A stretch of 64,000 nt of DNA from Candidatus Cloacimonadota bacterium (GTDB taxonomy: Bacteria; Cloacimonadota; Cloacimonadia; JGIOTU-2): positions 192,001-256,000 of the forward strand of contig JBNGBT010000004.1 in the NCBI GenBank assembly GCA_049903315.1. Reading direction: 5' to 3'. The first letter of the stretch is position 1. Each line of letters starts with the position of its first letter. The position numbers were made by a program, and so were the translations under genes. The notes beneath the pieces were generated by a model that saw nothing but the letters and a program-made list of their open reading frames with translations, did not search any database and was not told where the DNA came from. Positions 21,525 to 30,184 of this stretch are shown here, one piece after another.

Positions 21525-21581
21525 AGAACGTATAGAAATGTAGCACAAGATTCCGATCTTATGTAAGTAAAAGAGATAGTC

Positions 21582-21771
21582 GTTCATTTTCTCCTTGATG
21601 AGAAAACGAACCAAATGAATCACACGCTGATCAAGAAAACACTAAAATTTCATTCATTCAGCTAAAAGAAAAGAACTTATTCTTCCGACACTTCGGAAGA
21701 ATTCAAACAGCTTTCCTTTTTTAACACCTCATTCACAAAATTTCTTAACGTGTTTTCTTAATAGGCGGGAA
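21582..21771. repeat. ~190 bp structured non-coding repeat, copy 1
   Basis: Near-identical to 22052-22241; several nested inverted repeats. Confidence 0.9.
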
Positions 21772-22051
21772 TGGATAAGAAAAAATCAAATCCTCTCTAA
21801 ATAAGGGGAGTACGCCAACTGGCGGATACATCATCGCAGGTAAAGCCCAAAGAGATAGTTGCATAATTTAATAATGAAAATTCTAAAGAAGTAAAAATAC
21901 TCATGAATTTTAATCAATCGAAATTGAGAAATTATTGAAAAAGTAACGCATGATTCCAATCTTGCGCGATTCATAACTGAACTGAACACATTAATTATAA
22001 CGATGAGTCGGGTAAATAGTTGGAATTGAAATATAACTGAAAGATAATTAT

Positions 22052-22241
22052 GTTCATTTTCTCCTTGATGAGAAAACGAACCAAAAGAATCACCCGCTGA
22101 TCAAGAAAACACTAAAATTTCATTCATTCAGCTAAAAGAAAAGAACTTGTTCTTCCGACACTTCGGAAGAACTCAGACAGCTTTTCTTTTTAAACGCTTC
22201 ATTCACAAAATTTCTTAACGTATTTTCTTAATAGGCGGGAA
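22052..22241. repeat. ~190 bp structured non-coding repeat, copy 2
   Basis: Direct repeat of 21582-21771. Confidence 0.9.
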
Positions 22242-22359: not shown

Positions 22360-22919
22360 TTATTTATACAAATTTTTCATTCGCTGCAGAAGTTCATCAT
22401 TTTCAAGTAAGGCAACAGAATTTGTAATCTGATTTACTGATCCGATTTCAGATTTTATGTGCAGAATGGCTTTGTTCTTTATCTGTTTTTTTTATATGTC
22501 TTGCAAAAATTCCACCATTAATAACGAGATATGGTCTATCATAAAATTCAGTGACTTTAACTTTAAGGGGCTTGGTAATTTTTAAATTATTGTGCATGTG
22601 TGCAATACTTTCATATGCTTTCGAGAGATATTTTTCTCTTTCTTTCCAATTTTCAGAAGAGATAATTTTGTGGAAAAGAGGAGTGAGTTCTTTTGCTGAT
22701 CTTAATTGTGCCAAAGCAGTTCCAAACCATTTGCTGTAAGGCACATATTCTTTTTCCATTAAAAAGCAAAGTCTCATGAGTGACTGGACTAATCGAGCAG
22801 CAATAATGCGAGAACCTAACTCATCCTCCGCATCTCCGCATCTGCCGACAAAAGGTTCCTCTTCAGCAATGTTAGTCCATTCCGATGCAAGAAGGTAAAG
22901 CCAAATATCATGAGGATAA
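22360..22919 (-). pseudogene. 3' half of a DUF4037-family gene, 5'-truncated at the array end and frameshifted
   Basis: YPHDIWLYLLASEW..EEEPFVGRCG..DELGSRIIAARLV..LCFLMEKEYVPYSKWFGT. Removing one A from the A8 tract (22486-22493) restores ...IGSVNQITNS...LYK* ending at 22360. Confidence 0.8.
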
Positions 22920-23036
22920 TGTTTTGCGCATACGGCGGAATCAGCAGGATTCCGTCGTAAAACGAACAGCCAAACACCTGAGCCGGAAGGTTCAGGCAAA
23001 AAGCACTGACCAAACCAACTGACGACACGGCTGTTA
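22917..23036 (-). repeat. attC-like site 6 (distal; outer stem degenerate)
   Basis: + strand TAATgttttgcgcatacggc...cctgagccGGAAggttcagg...gacacggctGTTA, 120 bp. Confidence 0.88.
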
Positions 23037-23162
23037 CACGAATTTTTAGTTATTAATCTCGAAAGAATTAGAAAAAAGCTAACCCTGGTAGCTGACTGGG
23101 ACAATGCCCCAGCCAACGACAGCACCTCGCTCTCCAAATAAATGGAGATCCAGGGAGTTGCT

Positions 23163-23981
23163 TTATTTTCTACGAATTTCATCTATTTGTTTTTTTGCGC
23201 AATGTTTTTTTTTCATCGAAAGACCATCACATATTTCAAAATTATCATTTCGCCATTCAATTTGATTGAAATTTGAAGTTCCTGGCACTTCTGAACCAAG
23301 GAAATACCTTTTATTATTATGAATAATGCCAAAATTTATCGAAGCAGAATCCGGTTTTCTATATAAACCAATTAGTTGTGGAGAACCTCCACAGTTTTTA
23401 TCTCTTATATTAAATAAAGTATCACAAAAACAATGAAAGACATTTCTACTGGTGCTTTTATTTACACCCTGTTGATATCTTTTGTAGTTCTCAATAAATT
23501 CTTGTCTACCAGAACCGAGAACAAATAGTAAATCTGATTGCATAGGCAAATTCATTGTTTCTCTTTTAGAAGTAATTGAGTTTGACCAAGTCATTTTATA
23601 ACATTTGAAATTAGGATAATTATTAACAATTGTGTCTCTGGTAATGTGCATTATGTTTACGATGTTACTTACCAATTTCGGATATTTTGAAAAAGAATGT
23701 GATATTTTTTCGAATACAAGTTTGTTTTTTTTATCACAATTTAGGGTTTTTGTAAAAAGAATATTGGAATCTATCATCTCGATTATTTGAGATAATACTA
23801 TTGATGGAAATAACACATCGCCAGAATAAGCTAATATTTCAGGATATTCTTTTGAGGAAAAAACTTTTTTACCATAATCAAATTTGGTTGTACTATTCCA
23901 TGTAAACCGGCTATCGCCAGCAATATATGCTGACGTTGGTCCGTGTGTGTCAACGCCTAACCAAGAAACGATTAAGGTCAC
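23163..23981 (-). CDS. Cassette 6: Ntn-hydrolase / proteasome-beta-like putative Thr peptidase
   Basis: GGAG RBS then GTG at 23981 gives M-TLIVSW...AGDSR; later VLGSG and GGSPQ motifs. Confidence 0.65.
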   Translation of the reverse strand: MTLIVSWLGVDTHGPTSAYIAGDSRFTWNSTTKFDYGKKVFSSKEYPEILAYSGDVLFPSIVLSQIIEMIDSNILFTKTLNCDKKNKLVFEKISHSFSKYPKLVSNIVNIMHITRDTIVNNYPNFKCYKMTWSNSITSKRETMNLPMQSDLLFVLGSGRQEFIENYKRYQQGVNKSTSRNVFHCFCDTLFNIRDKNCGGSPQLIGLYRKPDSASINFGIIHNNKRYFLGSEVPGTSNFNQIEWRNDNFEICDGLSMKKKHCAKKQIDEIRRK

Positions 23982-24012
23982 TTTTATCTCCAACTAATTA
24001 CAAAATTTCGTG

Positions 24013-24130
24013 TAATGTTTTGCGTGTGCGGCGGAATCAGAATGATTCAGCCGAGACAAACAGCCCAAACCCTGAACCGGAAGGTTCAGGACAGAAGCAC
24101 TGACCAGCCCTACAGCCGACACGCTTGTTA
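24013..24130 (-). repeat. attC-like site 5
   Basis: TAATgttttgcgtgtgcggc...gccgacacgcttGTTA, 118 bp. Confidence 0.92.
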
Positions 24131-24136
24131 AGTGCA

Positions 24137-25168
24137 TCAATCCAAAACATCTCTTCCACTTGTATAAGTAACTTCAATTGTTTCATTGAAAACTAATTTT
24201 TGGCTATCACTTGTAAATGATCTTGCAGAAGAAGCCGGAGTTTCAGATAATAATGTTATTTGATCAGTTACCATATCCCAAACCATGAATTTAGAGAACT
24301 CATCTATATAGGCAAGTTTATTTCCGTCAGGAGAGATTTTAGGAAAGGTTCCTGAGAATAAATGTGAAACGGAATAGTTAGATGTATTGAGTAGATAAAT
24401 TTCATCATCGTCCTCAAAAACAACTTTTGATCTATCTTCGCACATTGATAATTGTATTAAAAATCCTTCATAAATGTATTGATTATTAGTACCATCAGTA
24501 TTAATTACATAGATACCTGGTTCAGAGAAGTATTTGCCATTTACATAGATAAGAGTGTTTTCATCAATCCAATCAACAGATGAATATGAGTTTTCCGATG
24601 AAAATTCAGAATCAACTACTACATCGATGTAACCGTCTAAATTGCGAAATTTAAGTGACCAAAGAACACTGTCTGGTAGCTCAAAATAATGTTTCTGAAT
24701 ATATGCAAAATATTCATAATTTGGTGATGGTTTTACATAACCTTCTACGATAGAATCAGTATTTGTTAGAACCTCAACAGTTCCAGATTCAATCGAACCT
24801 AAATAAATGTCACAATCAATTGAAGTTGGACCCCAGAAGATTATTTTGTTTAAATTTGGGAACAACTCAAAATCACTAATATCGTAATTGGTTGTATCAG
24901 TTGGTAGGATAGTATTTATACTTAAAGTGTTTAAATCGAGTGAAACAATTTGATCATAAGGGTAACTAATCTTAGTTTTATGTAGGATTTTTGAGTTATT
25001 ATCATAAAAAATAGAATGTCCTGCACTATAATCTGTGAGTTGAATTTTGTTTGTACCATCGCAATTAATCATTGTTAGATAGTCATAATAGTAAGTTTCA
25101 GTTATTGGTTCACAACCAATTATAAATAGAACTAATACAACCGAAATGCTATAAGCTAAATATTTCAT
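24137..25168 (-). CDS. Cassette 5: lipoprotein with a TolB-like beta-propeller
   Basis: MKYLAYSISVVLVLFIIGC lipobox; INTDGTN and ISPDGNKLAY repeats. Confidence 0.75.
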   Translation of the reverse strand: MKYLAYSISVVLVLFIIGCEPITETYYYDYLTMINCDGTNKIQLTDYSAGHSIFYDNNSKILHKTKISYPYDQIVSLDLNTLSINTILPTDTTNYDISDFELFPNLNKIIFWGPTSIDCDIYLGSIESGTVEVLTNTDSIVEGYVKPSPNYEYFAYIQKHYFELPDSVLWSLKFRNLDGYIDVVVDSEFSSENSYSSVDWIDENTLIYVNGKYFSEPGIYVINTDGTNNQYIYEGFLIQLSMCEDRSKVVFEDDDEIYLLNTSNYSVSHLFSGTFPKISPDGNKLAYIDEFSKFMVWDMVTDQITLLSETPASSARSFTSDSQKLVFNETIEVTYTSGRDVLD

Positions 25169-25196
25169 TCCTTTTACTCCATACTTTTGATGCACT

Positions 25197-25314
25197 TAAT
25201 GTCTTGCGTATGCGGCGGGATCAGAATGATCACGCCAAAACAACCAAGCAAACACCTGAGCCGGAAGGCTCAGGACAAAAGAACCGAAAAGCCCAACAGC
25301 CGATACGCCTGTTA
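25197..25314 (-). repeat. attC-like site 4
   Basis: TAATgtcttgcgtatgcggc...gccgatacgcctGTTA, 118 bp. Confidence 0.92.
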
Positions 25315-25353
25315 CAGGCAGTTTAAGATGAAATATTCTACACATAATTTAAA

Positions 25354-25866
25354 TCACCAGATATATTTGCATCTTACAAGGTATTTTACACCTTCATCAG
25401 TAACTGTATATGATTTTCGTCTTTTCTTATTAATAAATCCATCTAAATATCCATTATCTTTTAAATATCCAAATGCAATTAGTGTTTTAAGATATGCAGT
25501 TATTGTTGATTCTTTGAAACCTACCGCTTCGGCATATTTATCTTTAAAAAAACAAGGTGCTTCGTTCGTTAACAAAACAAATAAAAGTCTTCTTAGGTGT
25601 TTTTTATTTGGTAGTTTTAATTTACGATTTTTATATAAGCAAATAGAGGTGTAGACAAGTGATAGAATTACAAAACACATTAATATTATTGATAATCTCA
25701 ACATTGGTAGTGATATTTTACTGTGTAACGATAACTGCTGTAATAATTTTGAGAAAAATGGGAAAAATTGAAGACCTGAAGGAGATAAAATTGGGATTAC
25801 TATTTGTAGGATTGATACAATATCTCTCCATGTTAATTTGTTGTTATTTTTATCTTTTTCACTCAC
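25354..25866 (-). CDS. Cassette 4: hypothetical membrane protein with a possible C-terminal winged helix
   Basis: GAGG RBS and GTG start; hydrophobic N-half; YLKTLIAFGYL...YTVTDEGVKYL wHTH-like tail. Confidence 0.6.
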   Translation of the reverse strand: MSEKDKNNNKLTWRDIVSILQIVIPILSPSGLQFFPFFSKLLQQLSLHSKISLPMLRLSIILMCFVILSLVYTSICLYKNRKLKLPNKKHLRRLLFVLLTNEAPCFFKDKYAEAVGFKESTITAYLKTLIAFGYLKDNGYLDGFINKKRRKSYTVTDEGVKYLVRCKYIW

Positions 25867-25911
25867 TTCATCCTCTCAATTAAAACAATAAAAAAATACA
25901 GCAACTGCCTG

Positions 25912-26031
25912 TAATGTTTGGCGTGTGCGGCGGAATCAGAAGGATTCCGTCGTAAAACAAACAACCCAAACCCTGAACCGAAAGGTTCAGGCAAAACACA
26001 CCACGAAACCGAACAGCCGACACGCTTGTTA
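25912..26031 (-). repeat. attC-like site 3
   Basis: TAATgtttggcgtgtgcggc...gccgacacgcttGTTA, 120 bp. Confidence 0.92.
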
Positions 26032-26061
26032 AACGCATATATCATAAAATTTCACCGAAAC

Positions 26062-26712
26062 TCAATTACGAAAATAATCTGAATCAGCCAAGATTATTTG
26101 CTTATTCGTATGAAAAATTCCTGTAACATTTGTATATATTTTTGAAATTACTGGTGGAGGATAATTTGTTTTAATTAAAAAAACAACCCAACCATTATTC
26201 TCACTAATTTGATTTCCTCTCCAGTTAAACTTTTTCCCATTATCATATAATCCTTTTCCACCTGTAAAATTAGAACTTGATCTTCGATACTCATAATTTA
26301 TTGAATCAACAGGTTGTTCAAATATTAGAGTAAATTCAAAATTATTAATTGGTTTTTTAGTAATGTTTTTGAAACCAAGCTCATAATATTTATTTGTATT
26401 TTGGTAGGGTTGAGGATTTTTAATTTTTTGATAGAACAATTCATATTTGGGAATAGAAACATTGTCTTCAGAGTTTTCAAAATTGTAGTTAATTATTACA
26501 TCACTATTATCACCTTCCGTTGAAATTGCAGGTGAGAAAGAACCATCTGTAGTATTATGTATTTCCTTATACTCATCTTCTTTTGGATTAATAATGAATT
26601 TAGTTACCAGAGTTAATGCGAATGATATTATTGCTAAATAAGATACAAAGACAGTTATCTTTGTTGGAAAACTCCAAGCTTTCCATTGTTTTCTTGAAGG
26701 AATAAATTTCAT
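26062..26712 (-). CDS. Cassette 3: hypothetical protein with an N-terminal membrane anchor
   Basis: ORF fills the cassette; single TM segment near the N-terminus. Confidence 0.65.
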   Translation of the reverse strand: MKFIPSRKQWKAWSFPTKITVFVSYLAIISFALTLVTKFIINPKEDEYKEIHNTTDGSFSPAISTEGDNSDVIINYNFENSEDNVSIPKYELFYQKIKNPQPYQNTNKYYELGFKNITKKPINNFEFTLIFEQPVDSINYEYRRSSSNFTGGKGLYDNGKKFNWRGNQISENNGWVVFLIKTNYPPPVISKIYTNVTGIFHTNKQIILADSDYFRN

Positions 26713-26749
26713 TTATCAACCCCACAAAACTCAATAATTAATATGCGTT

Positions 26750-26868
26750 TAATGTTTTGCGTGTGCGGTGTGATCGGAACGATCACGCCAACCCAAACAA
26801 ACCAGCCGTTTGAATCGTAAGATTCAAACAAAGAGCACTGACCAACCCGAACAACGACACGCCTGTTA
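26750..26868 (-). repeat. attC-like site 2
   Basis: TAATgttttgcgtgtgcg...tttgaatcGTAAgattcaaa...cgacacgcctGTTA, 119 bp. Confidence 0.92.
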
Positions 26869-26880
26869 GGCACATTTTAC

Positions 26881-27522
26881 TTATGTAGAAAAATCAAGTT
26901 CCTGAGATCTTGTATATGATTGTGCTCTGGGAATTGATATTGGTATATTCTGAATTATGGGATTATTTTTTTGAGGTTCATAAATTATTGATAAATCAGC
27001 ATTAACAGGTAACAAATTGGAACTAATTTCATGTGTTAAACCATAGTCTTTTGCTTCAGTCGGATTAAGTGTAGTTCGATTATTCATGTCCTCGAATATT
27101 TTATCGGTTGATTTTCCTGTATTGTCAGCTATAACTCTTGCAATATTTAATTGATCAATTTTTAATCCATTTAAGTGTTCTTCTATTTGCTTTTCGTCTA
27201 AGCTAACGTTACCATTGAAATTAAATCTTACTCCATGAAGAAGGAACCTTGAGTGGGGAACTGAAAAACGTTTTTCTCCAGCGCAATAAATTACAACACC
27301 AATTGAATCAACGCTACCAAAATTATACGTGTCAATTTTTATTGGAGCTCCTTTGAGATAGTTATAAATGGACAGACCATGAAAGACAGAACCTCCTGGA
27401 GAAGAAATCATTAAATGTAGTTTTTCAAATTTTTGAGCGATTTTTTGATCAATTATCCGTAATAGTTGATCACTTGTTTGCGGAATTACGGGAGCCATAA
27501 ATCTAATGTAACATTCTTTCAT
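26881..27522 (-). CDS. Cassette 2: ClpP-family protease subunit (divergent)
   Basis: ISSPGGSV, GSVDSIG (Ser), RFLLH (His) and LNPTEAKDYGL motifs; GGAGG RBS. Confidence 0.85.
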   Translation of the reverse strand: MKECYIRFMAPVIPQTSDQLLRIIDQKIAQKFEKLHLMISSPGGSVFHGLSIYNYLKGAPIKIDTYNFGSVDSIGVVIYCAGEKRFSVPHSRFLLHGVRFNFNGNVSLDEKQIEEHLNGLKIDQLNIARVIADNTGKSTDKIFEDMNNRTTLNPTEAKDYGLTHEISSNLLPVNADLSIIYEPQKNNPIIQNIPISIPRAQSYTRSQELDFST

Positions 27523-27556
27523 TTTACTTTACCTCCAATTTTTTTTTAAATGTGCC

Positions 27557-27676
27557 TAATGTTTGGCGTGTGCGACGGGATCGGAACGATCACGCCCAAA
27601 ACAAACCGACCAGCCGTTTGAATCGGAAGATTCAAACAAAGAGCACTGACCAACCCTACTGCCGACACGCTTGTTA
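27557..27676 (-). repeat. attC-like site 1 (proximal)
   Basis: TAATgtttggcgtgtgcg...cgacacgcttGTTA, 120 bp. Confidence 0.92.
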
Positions 27677-27774
27677 GCTACATCTTTTTCTATTTCAATT
27701 ACTTACATTTTAAACTTATTTAAGTAAAGAATTTTATTGTTGTTCTTGGATAAATGGGTGTCATAATTAATTCT

Positions 27775-28248
27775 TCATTTTTTTATCTGAAACCATTCTG
27801 ATTCAATTTTACCTTGTGGATAAAAACCTTTGTAAGGCGACCCAGGCATATTTATAAATGGCGAGTGCATATATATAATGTCTCCAATTAATTTAAAGCT
27901 ATATTTGCCTTTGATTGGGGCAATTACTTTATATTTGTCAGGATAATTGAAAATTGTGAAACCCTGTTTAGTCGGTAATAAACGTTTTTTTTTGAGCTTA
28001 TTATTTTCATTTTTATAAAGAATAAAAAGATTTGACGAATAATAAAAATCAGGATTATCAATTCCTTTAATATCTACAGAAAAAGTTAGAGTATCTAATT
28101 TTGTGGAAATGTCAGAAGTTATTAAAGAAATACTTCTATGTTTATAAAGATTCGAGATATAATTATAACTTACTTTAGTATTGAAGTTATATGCACATGA
28201 AGATAACAAAAATAAGAAACACGCTGATTTTAATAATTTTATTAGCAT
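27775..28248 (-). CDS. Cassette 1: hypothetical lipoprotein
   Basis: MLIKLLKSACFLFLLSSC lipobox; ORF fills the cassette. Confidence 0.65.
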   Translation of the reverse strand: MLIKLLKSACFLFLLSSCAYNFNTKVSYNYISNLYKHRSISLITSDISTKLDTLTFSVDIKGIDNPDFYYSSNLFILYKNENNKLKKKRLLPTKQGFTIFNYPDKYKVIAPIKGKYSFKLIGDIIYMHSPFINMPGSPYKGFYPQGKIESEWFQIKK

Positions 28249-28302
28249 ATTATTAACCTAAAAATATTTTCCAATTCTCCATCCATTTCATTTAGATGTA
28301 GC

Positions 28303-28400
28303 TAATGTTTGTATACCCGACCAAAAGGTCGTGTATATTACGATTAAATTTCCTATAAGGTCGTATACAATACAATATATAAGTTATATACGAACTTGTT
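28303..28400 (-). other. attI-like primary insertion site directly downstream of the recombinase
   Basis: Carries the same TAATgtttg end as the attC-like sites but an unrelated body; AAGGTCGT direct repeats at 28325 and 28357; hairpin 28311-28338. Confidence 0.7.
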
Positions 28401-28412
28401 TTAATTATGAAA

Positions 28413-29477
28413 TTATGTTTCATCTAACTTCAAATTATCCAATGGACTTTTAATTTTGTTTCTTGCTGTATGTGTAACATGGGTATATATCTCTGTTGTT
28501 CTTGAGCTTTTGTGCCCTAAAAGTTCTTGAATATACCTCAAATCAGTCCCATGCTCCAATAAATGAGTAGCAAAACTATGCCGTAAAGTATGTATTGAAG
28601 CATGTTTCTTTACTCCAGATTTGTTTACAGCTGCTTTAAATAATTTTTGTATTACTCTCCTACTGAATTGTTCTCCGTATTTGCTTTCAAACAGCCATTT
28701 CTTTGGTTTATAAACCTTATAATATGTTCTTAGTAAATCTAATACGGTATCTGAAAGAATGCCGTATCTATCCTTGTTGCCTTTTGCGCTTCGAATAAAT
28801 ATCTGTTTTCGATCAGAATGAATGTCGGATATTCTCAAATGTACAACTTCTGTTAAACGTAATCCTGCAGAATAGATCAAATAGATAATACATTTATATT
28901 TCAGGTTCTTGACCTGTTTCAATATTTTTGTTACTTCTTCCTCGCTTAGAACTTCCGGTAGCTTTTTTTCTTTTCTTGGTCGAGGAACGTAATATTTTTC
29001 AACAGGTTTTCCCAGCACTTTTTCATAATAAAACTTTATACTGTTTATTGCTTGATTCTGTGCAGAAGTGGAATATTTCTTCTTATCTACCAGGTATAAC
29101 AAATATTTACGGATCTGTTCATGTGTGATATCTTTCAATTTAGTGTTTTGATAATATTTTAAAAACCGCTGAAAATGAAGACGATAAGTTTTAATGGTTG
29201 CGTCACTATAGTTTTTCAATTTCAAAGTTTCAATGTATTCAGAAGGGAAATCTAGTTTTGTATCAGTATCTTCTATGAATTCTAATTTACCTTTGAATTT
29301 CGTATGTAAAACACTAATGATATTTTTTTGATAGGGGATATGCCAGAACTTATTTGAAGCAGACCACTTTCTGCCTTCTATCTGTTTAATCTGTCTAATC
29401 GTATTTATGTCATAATCAAACAGTAGAGCAATACGTCTCTGCTTATCAATCAAATATTCCTTAGTCTTTATCTGCAT
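28413..29477 (-). CDS. Tyrosine recombinase (array-associated integrase) with a SAM-like core-binding domain and an extra N-terminal domain
   Basis: YSAGLR, AKGNKDR, HTLRHSFATH, LLGH and TTEIYTH catalytic motifs intact; NYS..TIKTY...STSAQNQAINSIKFYY. Confidence 0.95.
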   Translation of the reverse strand: MQIKTKEYLIDKQRRIALLFDYDINTIRQIKQIEGRKWSASNKFWHIPYQKNIISVLHTKFKGKLEFIEDTDTKLDFPSEYIETLKLKNYSDATIKTYRLHFQRFLKYYQNTKLKDITHEQIRKYLLYLVDKKKYSTSAQNQAINSIKFYYEKVLGKPVEKYYVPRPRKEKKLPEVLSEEEVTKILKQVKNLKYKCIIYLIYSAGLRLTEVVHLRISDIHSDRKQIFIRSAKGNKDRYGILSDTVLDLLRTYYKVYKPKKWLFESKYGEQFSRRVIQKLFKAAVNKSGVKKHASIHTLRHSFATHLLEHGTDLRYIQELLGHKSSRTTEIYTHVTHTARNKIKSPLDNLKLDET

Positions 29478-29519
29478 ACTATATCCTTCAGGTCATAATT
29501 TGGAGAATCATATTCCTCT

Positions 29520-29525
29520 TGTCAA
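29520..29525 (-). promoter_or_regulatory. TTGACA -35 element upstream of the recombinase
   Basis: Perfect TTGACA ~42 nt before the ATG; same motif precedes most transcription units in the window. Confidence 0.5.
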
Positions 29526-29542
29526 AGTAAATATTTTTTTCA

Positions 29543-30184
29543 TTAAAATCCCATATTCTCCTTAATTAAAAATATCTTTATCCTGTCCGGAATATTCTGG
29601 CGCATATTAATGGTCAGGTGTTTGCAGATACGCTCCTCAGCATCGCAGTCTGTGCAATAGCCGTTTTCAGCGCATGGAGTATTTCGTTTCAGCCGCTTTG
29701 CATTAATGGGAGCAGCCACATCGAGTACCCGGTCAATCGCCTGCTGCCTGTCCATCACGATCTTGTTCATGCCGGCAAAGAGGAATATTTTTCTTGGTCC
29801 AAAAATAATAGCTGAAACCCGGTTGCCATACCCGTCGATATTCACGATCTCACCTTCTGTGGTAATTGCATTGCATCCGGCAAGGAAGAAGTCGGACATG
29901 AGTGTTTTTCTGCGAAGTTCAAAAATTTCATCTCTGCTAAGGTTGGGGAGATAGGGATTAATAATATTGTAGTTATTGTCTTTGAGATGATCGAACAGTC
30001 CGATCTCCCGCACGGTCATGGAGCCGCCTATGCCGATGGATGATTTCTTATCGAGTTCCTTCAATGCTTTTTCACGGGCATCGTCACTATTTTCACAGAG
30101 TTCTACAAGGAAGTTATGTTTTTCCAGCGCTTCTTTTGCCTTTTTCATCATTGTTTCGTTGTGCCAGTTCACGAATTCAGACAT
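29543..30184 (-). CDS. LUD-domain (lactate utilisation-like, DUF1121-type) protein
   Basis: GIGGSMTV, NAITTEGEIVNIDGYGNRVSA, AAPINA, TPC...CTDC...IC motifs; GGAGG RBS before ATG 30184. Confidence 0.85.
   Translation of the reverse strand: MSEFVNWHNETMMKKAKEALEKHNFLVELCENSDDAREKALKELDKKSSIGIGGSMTVREIGLFDHLKDNNYNIINPYLPNLSRDEIFELRRKTLMSDFFLAGCNAITTEGEIVNIDGYGNRVSAIIFGPRKIFLFAGMNKIVMDRQQAIDRVLDVAAPINAKRLKRNTPCAENGYCTDCDAEERICKHLTINMRQNIPDRIKIFLIKENMGF

Follow-up and report, generated by a model that had tools for sequence, protein, structure and literature searches.

Private end repeats of gene cassettes in a Cloacimonadota array probably serve as a recombinase-binding arm in an integron-like platform without the I2 insertion

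A 64,000-nucleotide stretch of DNA from a marine Candidatus Cloacimonadota bacterium (GenBank assembly GCA_049903315.1, contig JBNGBT010000004.1, positions 192,001 to 256,000; hereafter the window) contains an array of six gene cassettes behind the gene of a tyrosine recombinase, and each cassette is flanked by its own matching ends of 12–13 bases, with a mismatch in one pair. The recombinase lacks I2, the insertion specific to the integron integrases (IntI). We consider it probable that the end repeat is a selected arm to which the recombinase binds on a folded single strand, within an integron-like platform that functions without I2, and that it is not a scar of cassette creation. Pairing of cassette ends past 7 nucleotides is known in principle for classical cassettes; what is new here is the longer stem, the geometry of the attachment (att) site and the recombinase without I2. 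Specifically, the window adds a lineage with a near-perfect stem and a mispaired crossover, a matched control from classical arrays, and evidence from unit boundaries for the position of the cut.

When positions are counted from the TT that starts each cassette and the six starts are compared with the six ends, perfect pairing runs for 12, 12, 12, 12 and 13 nucleotides in five cassettes and then stops; in the sixth (23034/24015), nine paired nucleotides are followed by a single mismatch at position 10 and four further pairs. All six inverted repeats of about 12 base pairs (bp), one per cassette, are thus present where the original prediction had placed them. Runs between the ends of different cassettes reach only 3–5 nucleotides. 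At positions 4–12, 53 of 54 bases pair within the cassette, and among the 720 possible pairings of starts with ends the true one alone gives this score (runner-up 48, mean 30.5); given the local base composition, nine matches out of nine have a chance probability of about 1e-5 in each cassette. The claim that each end matches only the other end of its own cassette is borne out by these figures. It had also been stated that TTA is all that the ends have in common, and this was wrong: position 9 is A in all six start arms, position 8 is C in five of them and position 12 is T in five. Private pairing extends to a seventh cassette of this genome, on contig C69, and so holds in 7/7. Because the complementarity is private to each cassette, it points to base pairing and not to a sequence read by protein, and, since the two ends would meet only in a circle, the repeat would form the outer stem when the att site folds. 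Pairing beyond the 7-nucleotide R boxes (9–11 nucleotides), a trait of classical integrons, is present and surpassed, at 12–13, in five of the six window cassettes. The original prediction had noted a length above that of the 7-bp core, but this is not in itself new: the accessible text of Bouvier 2009 (PMC2727003) gives 9–11 consecutive complementary nucleotides at the ends of most classical cassettes.

The stem of the att site had been proposed to be split in the array and whole in the circle, with the crossover near A^TTA of the gene strand. Both parts of this proposal are supported, but the repeat by itself cannot place the crossover: whichever end of the att core is cut, the resulting pattern is identical. 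It is therefore worth considering the arrangement in which the crossover lies opposite (at AA^C of the gene strand, with the top strand used) and each core goes with the gene that follows it; by the rule known for IntI1, an extra base found on one arm of the site would likewise favor the top strand. The two ends of the array, together with the cassettes described below, make this arrangement extremely improbable. The gene nearest the recombinase has no att core upstream of it and is preceded by an attI-like site (28303..28400, minus strand), in which an inverted repeat (the hairpin at 28318–28331 with its flanks) is followed by ACAAACA^TTA. As is typical of attI, this site lies beside the recombinase gene and the first cassette starts inside it, with the crossover probably between 28306 and 28305. 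The same motif, ending in C(A/G)^TT, recurs at the same position after close homologues of the recombinase, with different cassettes behind it. At the far end of the array, a complete core is joined at CA^TTA to the 3′ part of a DUF4037 gene (22448..22919, minus strand; PF13228 positions 36–101). The window reads KHYP at this junction where full-length homologues (about 361 amino acids) read xYYP, with Y in 85 of the 90 motif-matched sequences among the 120 listed, and the foreign sequence therefore ends at the C of CA^TTA. No intact DUF4037 gene was found in the 20 other genomes of the family, so the empty site is unreadable at the DNA level, and the fragment may itself be foreign, given its absence from those genomes.

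Two further observations bear on the boundary. The seventh cassette (contig C69, 12214–13265) has a 13-nucleotide repeat and a core downstream only, and the sequence upstream of it has homologues in relatives that stop at this C(A/G)^TT as well, with other genes behind them; this attI-like sequence was missed by the attI profile and was found by homology to the relatives. Likewise, among cassettes anchored solely by their own downstream site, C(A/G) precedes the TT in 43 of 54, in many cases after attI-like sequence. On sequence grounds, the cassette unit is a gene plus its downstream site, with crossing within CA^TTA; the exact cut, A^TT, is suggested by analogy with the G^TT of IntI.

The six att sites that separate the cassettes are related, each measures 118–121 nucleotides (about 120), and the core accounts for about 114 of these. 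The gene-strand site reads AA|C AA GCGTGT CG ... CG C ACACGC (A/C)AAAC A|TTA. In 179 distinct cores, 2 unpaired nucleotides face 5, followed by 6 bp and then by one extra base on the R′ arm; the classical arrangement, with a spacer of 5–6 nucleotides per arm and extrahelical bases on the R″-L″ arm (PMC5027507, PMC2727003), was not seen in these cores. Of 181 distinct sites, 177 have A as the crossover base (ATT, opposite AAC) under a scan pattern that permitted A or G, and 175 have C as the first core base, a figure partly dictated by the anchor pattern. Paired conserved AAC/GTT triplets, another classical trait, are hence absent from these sites, in which AAC is kept and GTT is replaced by ATT. 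The two side hairpins covary: among 11 sites, 8 of the 19 predicted pairs have changed on both sides. Folding of the circular form had been proposed earlier as a check, and the folded bottom strand is predicted to be about 3–8 kcal/mol more stable with its own start arm than with a foreign one. The repeats do not correspond to a described RNA; Rfam gave two weak matches far below their gathering scores, neither of them on a site.

The recombinase itself (354 amino acids; 28413..29477, minus strand; PF00589 and PF13495) lies upstream of the cassettes and is co-oriented with them. Its catalytic residues R207, K232, H296, R299, H322 and Y331 are invariant in an alignment with three IntI proteins, and at the place of the IntI-specific I2 insertion the same alignment leaves two gaps, of 29 and 11 residues. 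The integron integrase model TIGR02249 scores 227.9 bits, in two stretches, below its cut-off of 265, and no IntI above this cut-off was found in the genome, which is 96% complete. The predicted fold is nearest to that of the Vibrio cholerae integrase (PDB 2a3v, the best match) and to archaeal XerA. The protein also carries an extra N-terminal domain of about 70 amino acids, for which the single-sequence model is poor (predicted local distance difference test, pLDDT, 58) and Atlas matches stay below 0.9; HARP (PF07443) matches 10 of 27 members of the recombinase family and is not found in the window recombinase. The nearest homologues, at 73–79% identity, are mostly from Cloacimonadota genomes and those at 45–58% mostly from Bacteroidota; three other tyrosine recombinase matches within the genome share 29–38% identity with it. 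A role as an Xer chromosome-dimer resolvase was considered and rejected, in that the XerC and XerD models score far below their cut-offs and the gene heads a variable array; dif was not sought. Many contigs with recombinase homologues (loci L001–L080) stop a few hundred bases past the recombinase gene, as would be expected if a variable array breaks assembly. Five genomes of the family (G016, G011, G017, G005 and G009; loci L151–L155) carry a classical IntI above the cut-off among housekeeping genes; no sites of the Cloacimonadota family were found beside these five genes, and the loci are thus of no use as a control.

These features can be assembled into a model. A cassette would consist of TT and the start arm, the gene, the end arm and AA, and then the att core of about 114 nucleotides ending in A. 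In the circle, a single strand (the bottom one, if IntI is a guide) would fold, bringing the end arm and the start arm together as an outer stem of about 12 bp, or 14 bp in distant relatives; inward of it would lie the crossover base, an internal loop of 5 by 2 nucleotides, an inner stem of 6 bp, an extra G and the two covarying side hairpins. The outer stem would be the binding arm for the recombinase subunit that cuts at AA^T, and the attI-like site would be its partner in recombination once folded, at A^TTA. For simple tyrosine recombinases, Xer and Cre among them, the bound arms measure 11–13 bp. The outer stem would have to be double-stranded, and the two ends of one cassette would therefore stay complementary with most of their bases free, within the partial consensus TTA-NNN-G-C-A-W-T-T.

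A different possibility is that recombination is double-stranded, in the manner of Xer or Cre, with the arms as inverted binding sites and the AAACA before the crossover as overlap homology. Such a scheme would suit a recombinase that has no I2 and passes the archaeal XerA model, by a margin of 1.1 bits, and it would suit the AAACA with which the attI site and the att cores of the window alike end. However, the arms would be 114 nucleotides apart in the circle, too distant for one core site; the private covariation and the compensated hairpins require folding; and the attI-like sites of relatives have only C(A/G) in common before the TT. We regard this scheme as quite improbable, and folding of a single strand as the better account of the arms.

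The private-repeat rule is not peculiar to the window. The att site is present in 14 of the 21 genomes of the family and in at least 150 metagenome stretches. A set of 198 loci (145 from metagenomes, among the matches listed, and 53 from relatives), scanned with anchors made of site-internal letters only, gave 65 cassettes with a site on either side, spread over 48 loci; self-matching ends, a check proposed earlier, are found in these other arrays. Their pairing at positions 4–12 is 0.83, 0.88, 0.88, 0.94, 0.91, 0.88, 0.60, 0.69 and 0.55, against a background of 0.27–0.65 for mismatched ends, to which true pairing drops from position 14 onward. In the 50 cassettes with perfect pairing at positions 4–6, runs are mostly of 9–13 nucleotides (9 in 17 cassettes, 10 in 5, 11 in 14, 12 in 4 and 13 in 4) and spread from 9 to 15, which puts the window, at 12–13, at the long end of the family. 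Position 7 is G in 42 of these 50 and position 9 is A in 40; position 10 forms a normal pair in 32 and a G.T pair in 6, and it is at this position that the sixth window cassette is mismatched. Genes lie on the expected strand in 63 of the 65 cassettes, and the arm overlaps the stop codon, within the last 14 nucleotides, in 12 of 63. Two cassettes that are 76% alike over their full length carry different, self-matching ends. When 80 loci were searched blindly for inverted repeats, chance matches overwhelmed the result. In one relative (G009; locus L221, 1740–2975), the cassette inserted at a Cloacimonadota attI-like site has a stem of 15 bp, the wobble at position 10 and a different type of att site, which suggests that both att site types draw on one cassette pool.

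It is informative to compare these stems with those of classical integrons and of more distant recombinases without I2, for which a single pipeline was used (pairing required at positions 1–6, chains of at least 3, and zero chains in shuffled DNA). The classical control consists of 95 cassettes in 19 of 47 loci beside an IntI above the cut-off, from Gammaproteobacteria and one cyanobacterial plasmid, and retains two short chains that look false. Two earlier classical controls were discarded, one with 24 pairs, of which 7 looked true, and one that gave 202 pairs in shuffles. The distant set without I2 has 39 cassettes from 5 of 71 loci and 4 more from the extension of one locus. Classical pairing at positions 7–14 is 0.81, 0.64, 0.35, 0.42, 0.26, 0.17, 0.24 and 0.23, with runs of 6–8 in 78 of 95 cassettes and of 11–12 in 8 (median 8 from the TT). 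In the distant set the corresponding values are 0.92, 0.85, 0.72, 0.05, 0.85, 0.87, 0.82 and 0.62, that is, a 14-bp stem with a gap at position 10. At least three of the four pairs at positions 11–14 are present in 35 of the 43 distant cassettes versus 1 of the 95 classical ones, and at least three of positions 9–12 are paired in 36 of the 50 Cloacimonadota cassettes versus 11 of 95, in sets delimited by different anchors. The extent of pairing thus differs: classical pairing stops near position 8–10, that of the Cloacimonadota family reaches 11–12, and that of the distant relatives reaches 14.

The gap at position 10 is itself patterned. At this position, A in the start faces C in the end in 35 of the 43 cassettes of the distant set, which is a G.T pair on the bottom strand; a normal pair is found in 2 of 43. 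Taking one first cassette per locus (27 loci, some of them probably false), pairing is 0.11 at position 10 and 0.59–0.74 at positions 11–14. The stem pattern with its gap at position 10 recurs in four cassettes of a Chryseobacterium plasmid, and a few distant cassettes pair over 16–20 positions. On a Chryseobacterium plasmid (NZ_CP041688; locus L164, 13100–22200), a near-identical, gene-less unit of about 190 nucleotides recurs four times at cassette borders, and in the same array, which lies behind a recombinase homologue, an IS110 element and a group II intron interrupt cassette ends.

The original prediction saw in the repeat a hint at how cassettes are created. Developed further, this would make the repeat a by-product of the making or repair of cassettes, in which one end is copied from the other (by template switching, hairpin-primed synthesis or stem repair) and pairing beyond about 8 bp is not needed. 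The window repeats are private and near perfect, runs in the family vary from 9 to 15 and a few distant ones extend to 16–20, and how cassettes form is, in the accessible text of one article (PMC8618304), an open question; all of this would sit comfortably with copying. However, copying would yield neither a mismatch tied to position 10 and to particular bases (A/G in 35/43) nor a sharp end at 14 nor a consensus at positions 7 and 9, and the arms can overlap stop codons. We therefore think a by-product unlikely, and the hint at cassette creation is unsupported. The fixed length, the partial consensus, the fixed wobble of the relatives and the homologous pair with changed but self-matching ends argue instead that the stem is kept by selection as a binding arm, and it is more likely a requirement of the window recombinase than a scar of cassette creation, although copying or repair between the arms may help to maintain it.

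If the arm is selected, its mispairs invite speculation about orientation. A non-Watson-Crick pair (T.G on the bottom strand, C.A on the top) is a candidate strand mark, located at position 10 in the distant relatives, whose sites are of Bacteroidota type, and at the crossover base in the family of the window. Here ATT stands opposite AAC and attI is also ATT, which would let the bottom strand alone exchange with attI. In the distant set, the bottom strand gives the more stable outer stem in 35 of 37 cases. We put forward only tentatively, as something that could well prove wrong, the idea that recombinases without I2 read orientation through a long outer stem with one mispair, and that in this Cloacimonadota lineage the mark moved to the crossover base and position 10 was relaxed.

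Several observations weigh against a selected binding arm or against the orientation mark attached to it. The excess of the Cloacimonadota stem over the published 9–11 nucleotides is just 2–4 nucleotides, and part of it is due to an A/T-rich consensus (cross-pair background of 0.34–0.48 at positions 10–12). Two loci supply 27 of the 43 distant cassettes, which are kin and not independent, and the changed ends come from one full-length homologous pair. No circle or excision joint at A^TTA was found in four runs, searched as assembled contigs, which drop rare forms; three low-depth joints have foreign letters between their sides and look like the sites of other strains. The bottom strand is lower in predicted energy than the top in only 2 of the 6 window cassettes, with the outer stem alone within 0.6 kcal/mol, and it is the more stable strand in 13 of 23 cassettes of relatives. 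A test of whether the wobble at position 10 is kept by sites with G at the crossover had no such cases to draw on (0 of 41).

The array can now be set beside known systems. Like classical integrons (class 1, and that of V. cholerae with VchIntIA, PDB 2a3v), it combines a recombinase and an attI-like site with co-oriented single-gene cassettes, each followed by a putative folding site (6/6 in the window); AAC stands at the gene end, TT past the crossover and, on the bottom strand, G beside the crossover base; the ends of one cassette pair past 7 nucleotides; and the integron integrase is the best fold match. Unlike classical integrons, it has a recombinase without I2, with an extra N-terminal domain, that is upstream of and co-oriented with the cassettes, sites with ATT and not GTT at the crossover (177/181 in the family), a 5-by-2 loop with the extra base on the R′ arm and not on the R″-L″ arm, and an outer stem of 11–13 bp (14 with a fixed wobble in the distant relatives). 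The position of the extra base deserves attention: for IntI1, according to the accessible text of Nivina 2016 (PMC5027507), the bottom strand is marked by extrahelical bases across from the cut arm, whereas here an extra G lies on the cut arm. The array operates like an integron but is not a classical one, since I2, the GTT triplet and the attC geometry are all missing.

The I2 insertion, with the extrahelical bases that it reads, is the accepted basis for the use of folded single strands by integrases. An array with integron logic, another site geometry and no I2 makes both the role of I2 and the control of orientation testable. End pairing past 7 nucleotides is already known and alone would not matter; the stem rule (8–10 positions in IntI arrays, 11–14 without I2) offers a means to find and delimit such cassettes from sequence. 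Should orientation indeed be read through a long stem with a mispair, hairpin recombination would need neither the I2 helix nor classical extrahelical bases, and a second, widespread integron lineage would have been overlooked. Smyshlyaev 2021 (PMC8138268) defines an “integron-like” subgroup of simple tyrosine recombinases and calls the insertion essential for integron function; for members that lack I2, its accessible text mentions neither arrays of cassettes nor att sites. According to the accessible text of Neron 2022 (PMC9024848), one complete integron was found in Bacteroidetes, and complete integrons are very rare there. Our literature search, which left most subscription papers and bioRxiv supplements uncovered, found no paper on cassette arrays without I2, wobble-marked outer stems or Cloacimonadota integrons.

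Such a lineage may have captured tet(X3). The TnpF protein (“xerD”) encoded upstream of tet(X3) in Acinetobacter plasmids is 56.5% identical to residues 136–351 of the window recombinase, and the locus (plasmid pHH1107, 5986–8100; L163) resembles the window array in having an attI-like sequence, then ^TT, a gene, AAC and half of an att site; it differs in its truncated recombinase gene and in arms paired at just 11 of 16 positions. Chen 2020 (PMC7722449) treats TnpF and tet(X3) as part of an ISCR2 transposition unit, with integrons unmentioned in the accessible text. To us, tet(X3) looks like the first cassette of an array without I2 that was later moved by ISCR2.

Turning to the individual units, all six cassettes and their genes are on the minus strand. 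Cassette 1 (27560..28305, 746 bp; 12-bp arms at 28294–28305 and 27674–27685, att core 27560–27673) carries a gene for 157 amino acids (27775–28248) with no family, and cassette 2 (26753..27559, 807 bp; 12-bp arms at 27548–27559 and 26866–26877, core 26753–26865) a ClpP-like protease gene (26881–27522; PF00574, E 3e-27). Cassette 3 (25915..26752, 838 bp; 12-bp arms at 26741–26752 and 26029–26040, core 25915–26028) encodes 216 amino acids (26062–26712) and cassette 4 (25200..25914, 715 bp; 12-bp arms at 25903–25914 and 25312–25323, core 25200–25311) encodes 170 amino acids (25354–25866), neither with a family. In cassette 5 (24016..25199, 1184 bp; 13-bp arms at 25187–25199 and 24128–24140, core 24016–24127), the gene (24137–25168, 343 amino acids) has weak matches to TolB-like propellers, and its stop codon lies inside the end arm. 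Cassette 6 (22920..24015, 1096 bp; core 22920–23033), whose arms at 24002–24015 and 23034–23047 comprise the 9 bp, the mismatch at position 10 and the final 4 bp, has a gene for 276 amino acids (23163–23993) with no family.

The cassette 6 gene is found in 1 of 232 genomes of the phylum, its own; the ClpP-like gene has one close homologue (56%) among the 231 other genomes; and a search for homologues of three cassette genes in the 232 genomes gave one outside match, without a detectable repeat. PADLOC matched none of the six window cassette genes. The cassette on contig C69 (12214–13379 with its site; locus L219) is an orphan with no recombinase gene adjoining, and its gene, of family DUF4238, matches the PADLOC candidate defense model PDLC03000 (E 1e-53). 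A search for a cassette promoter (Pc) in 28200–29700 gave 6 promoter-like matches versus 7.3 expected by chance. Beyond the far end of the array, a direct repeat of 211 nucleotides without an Rfam match, 91% alike in its two copies at 21561–21771 and 22031–22241, has more copies on contigs C11, C22 and C4.

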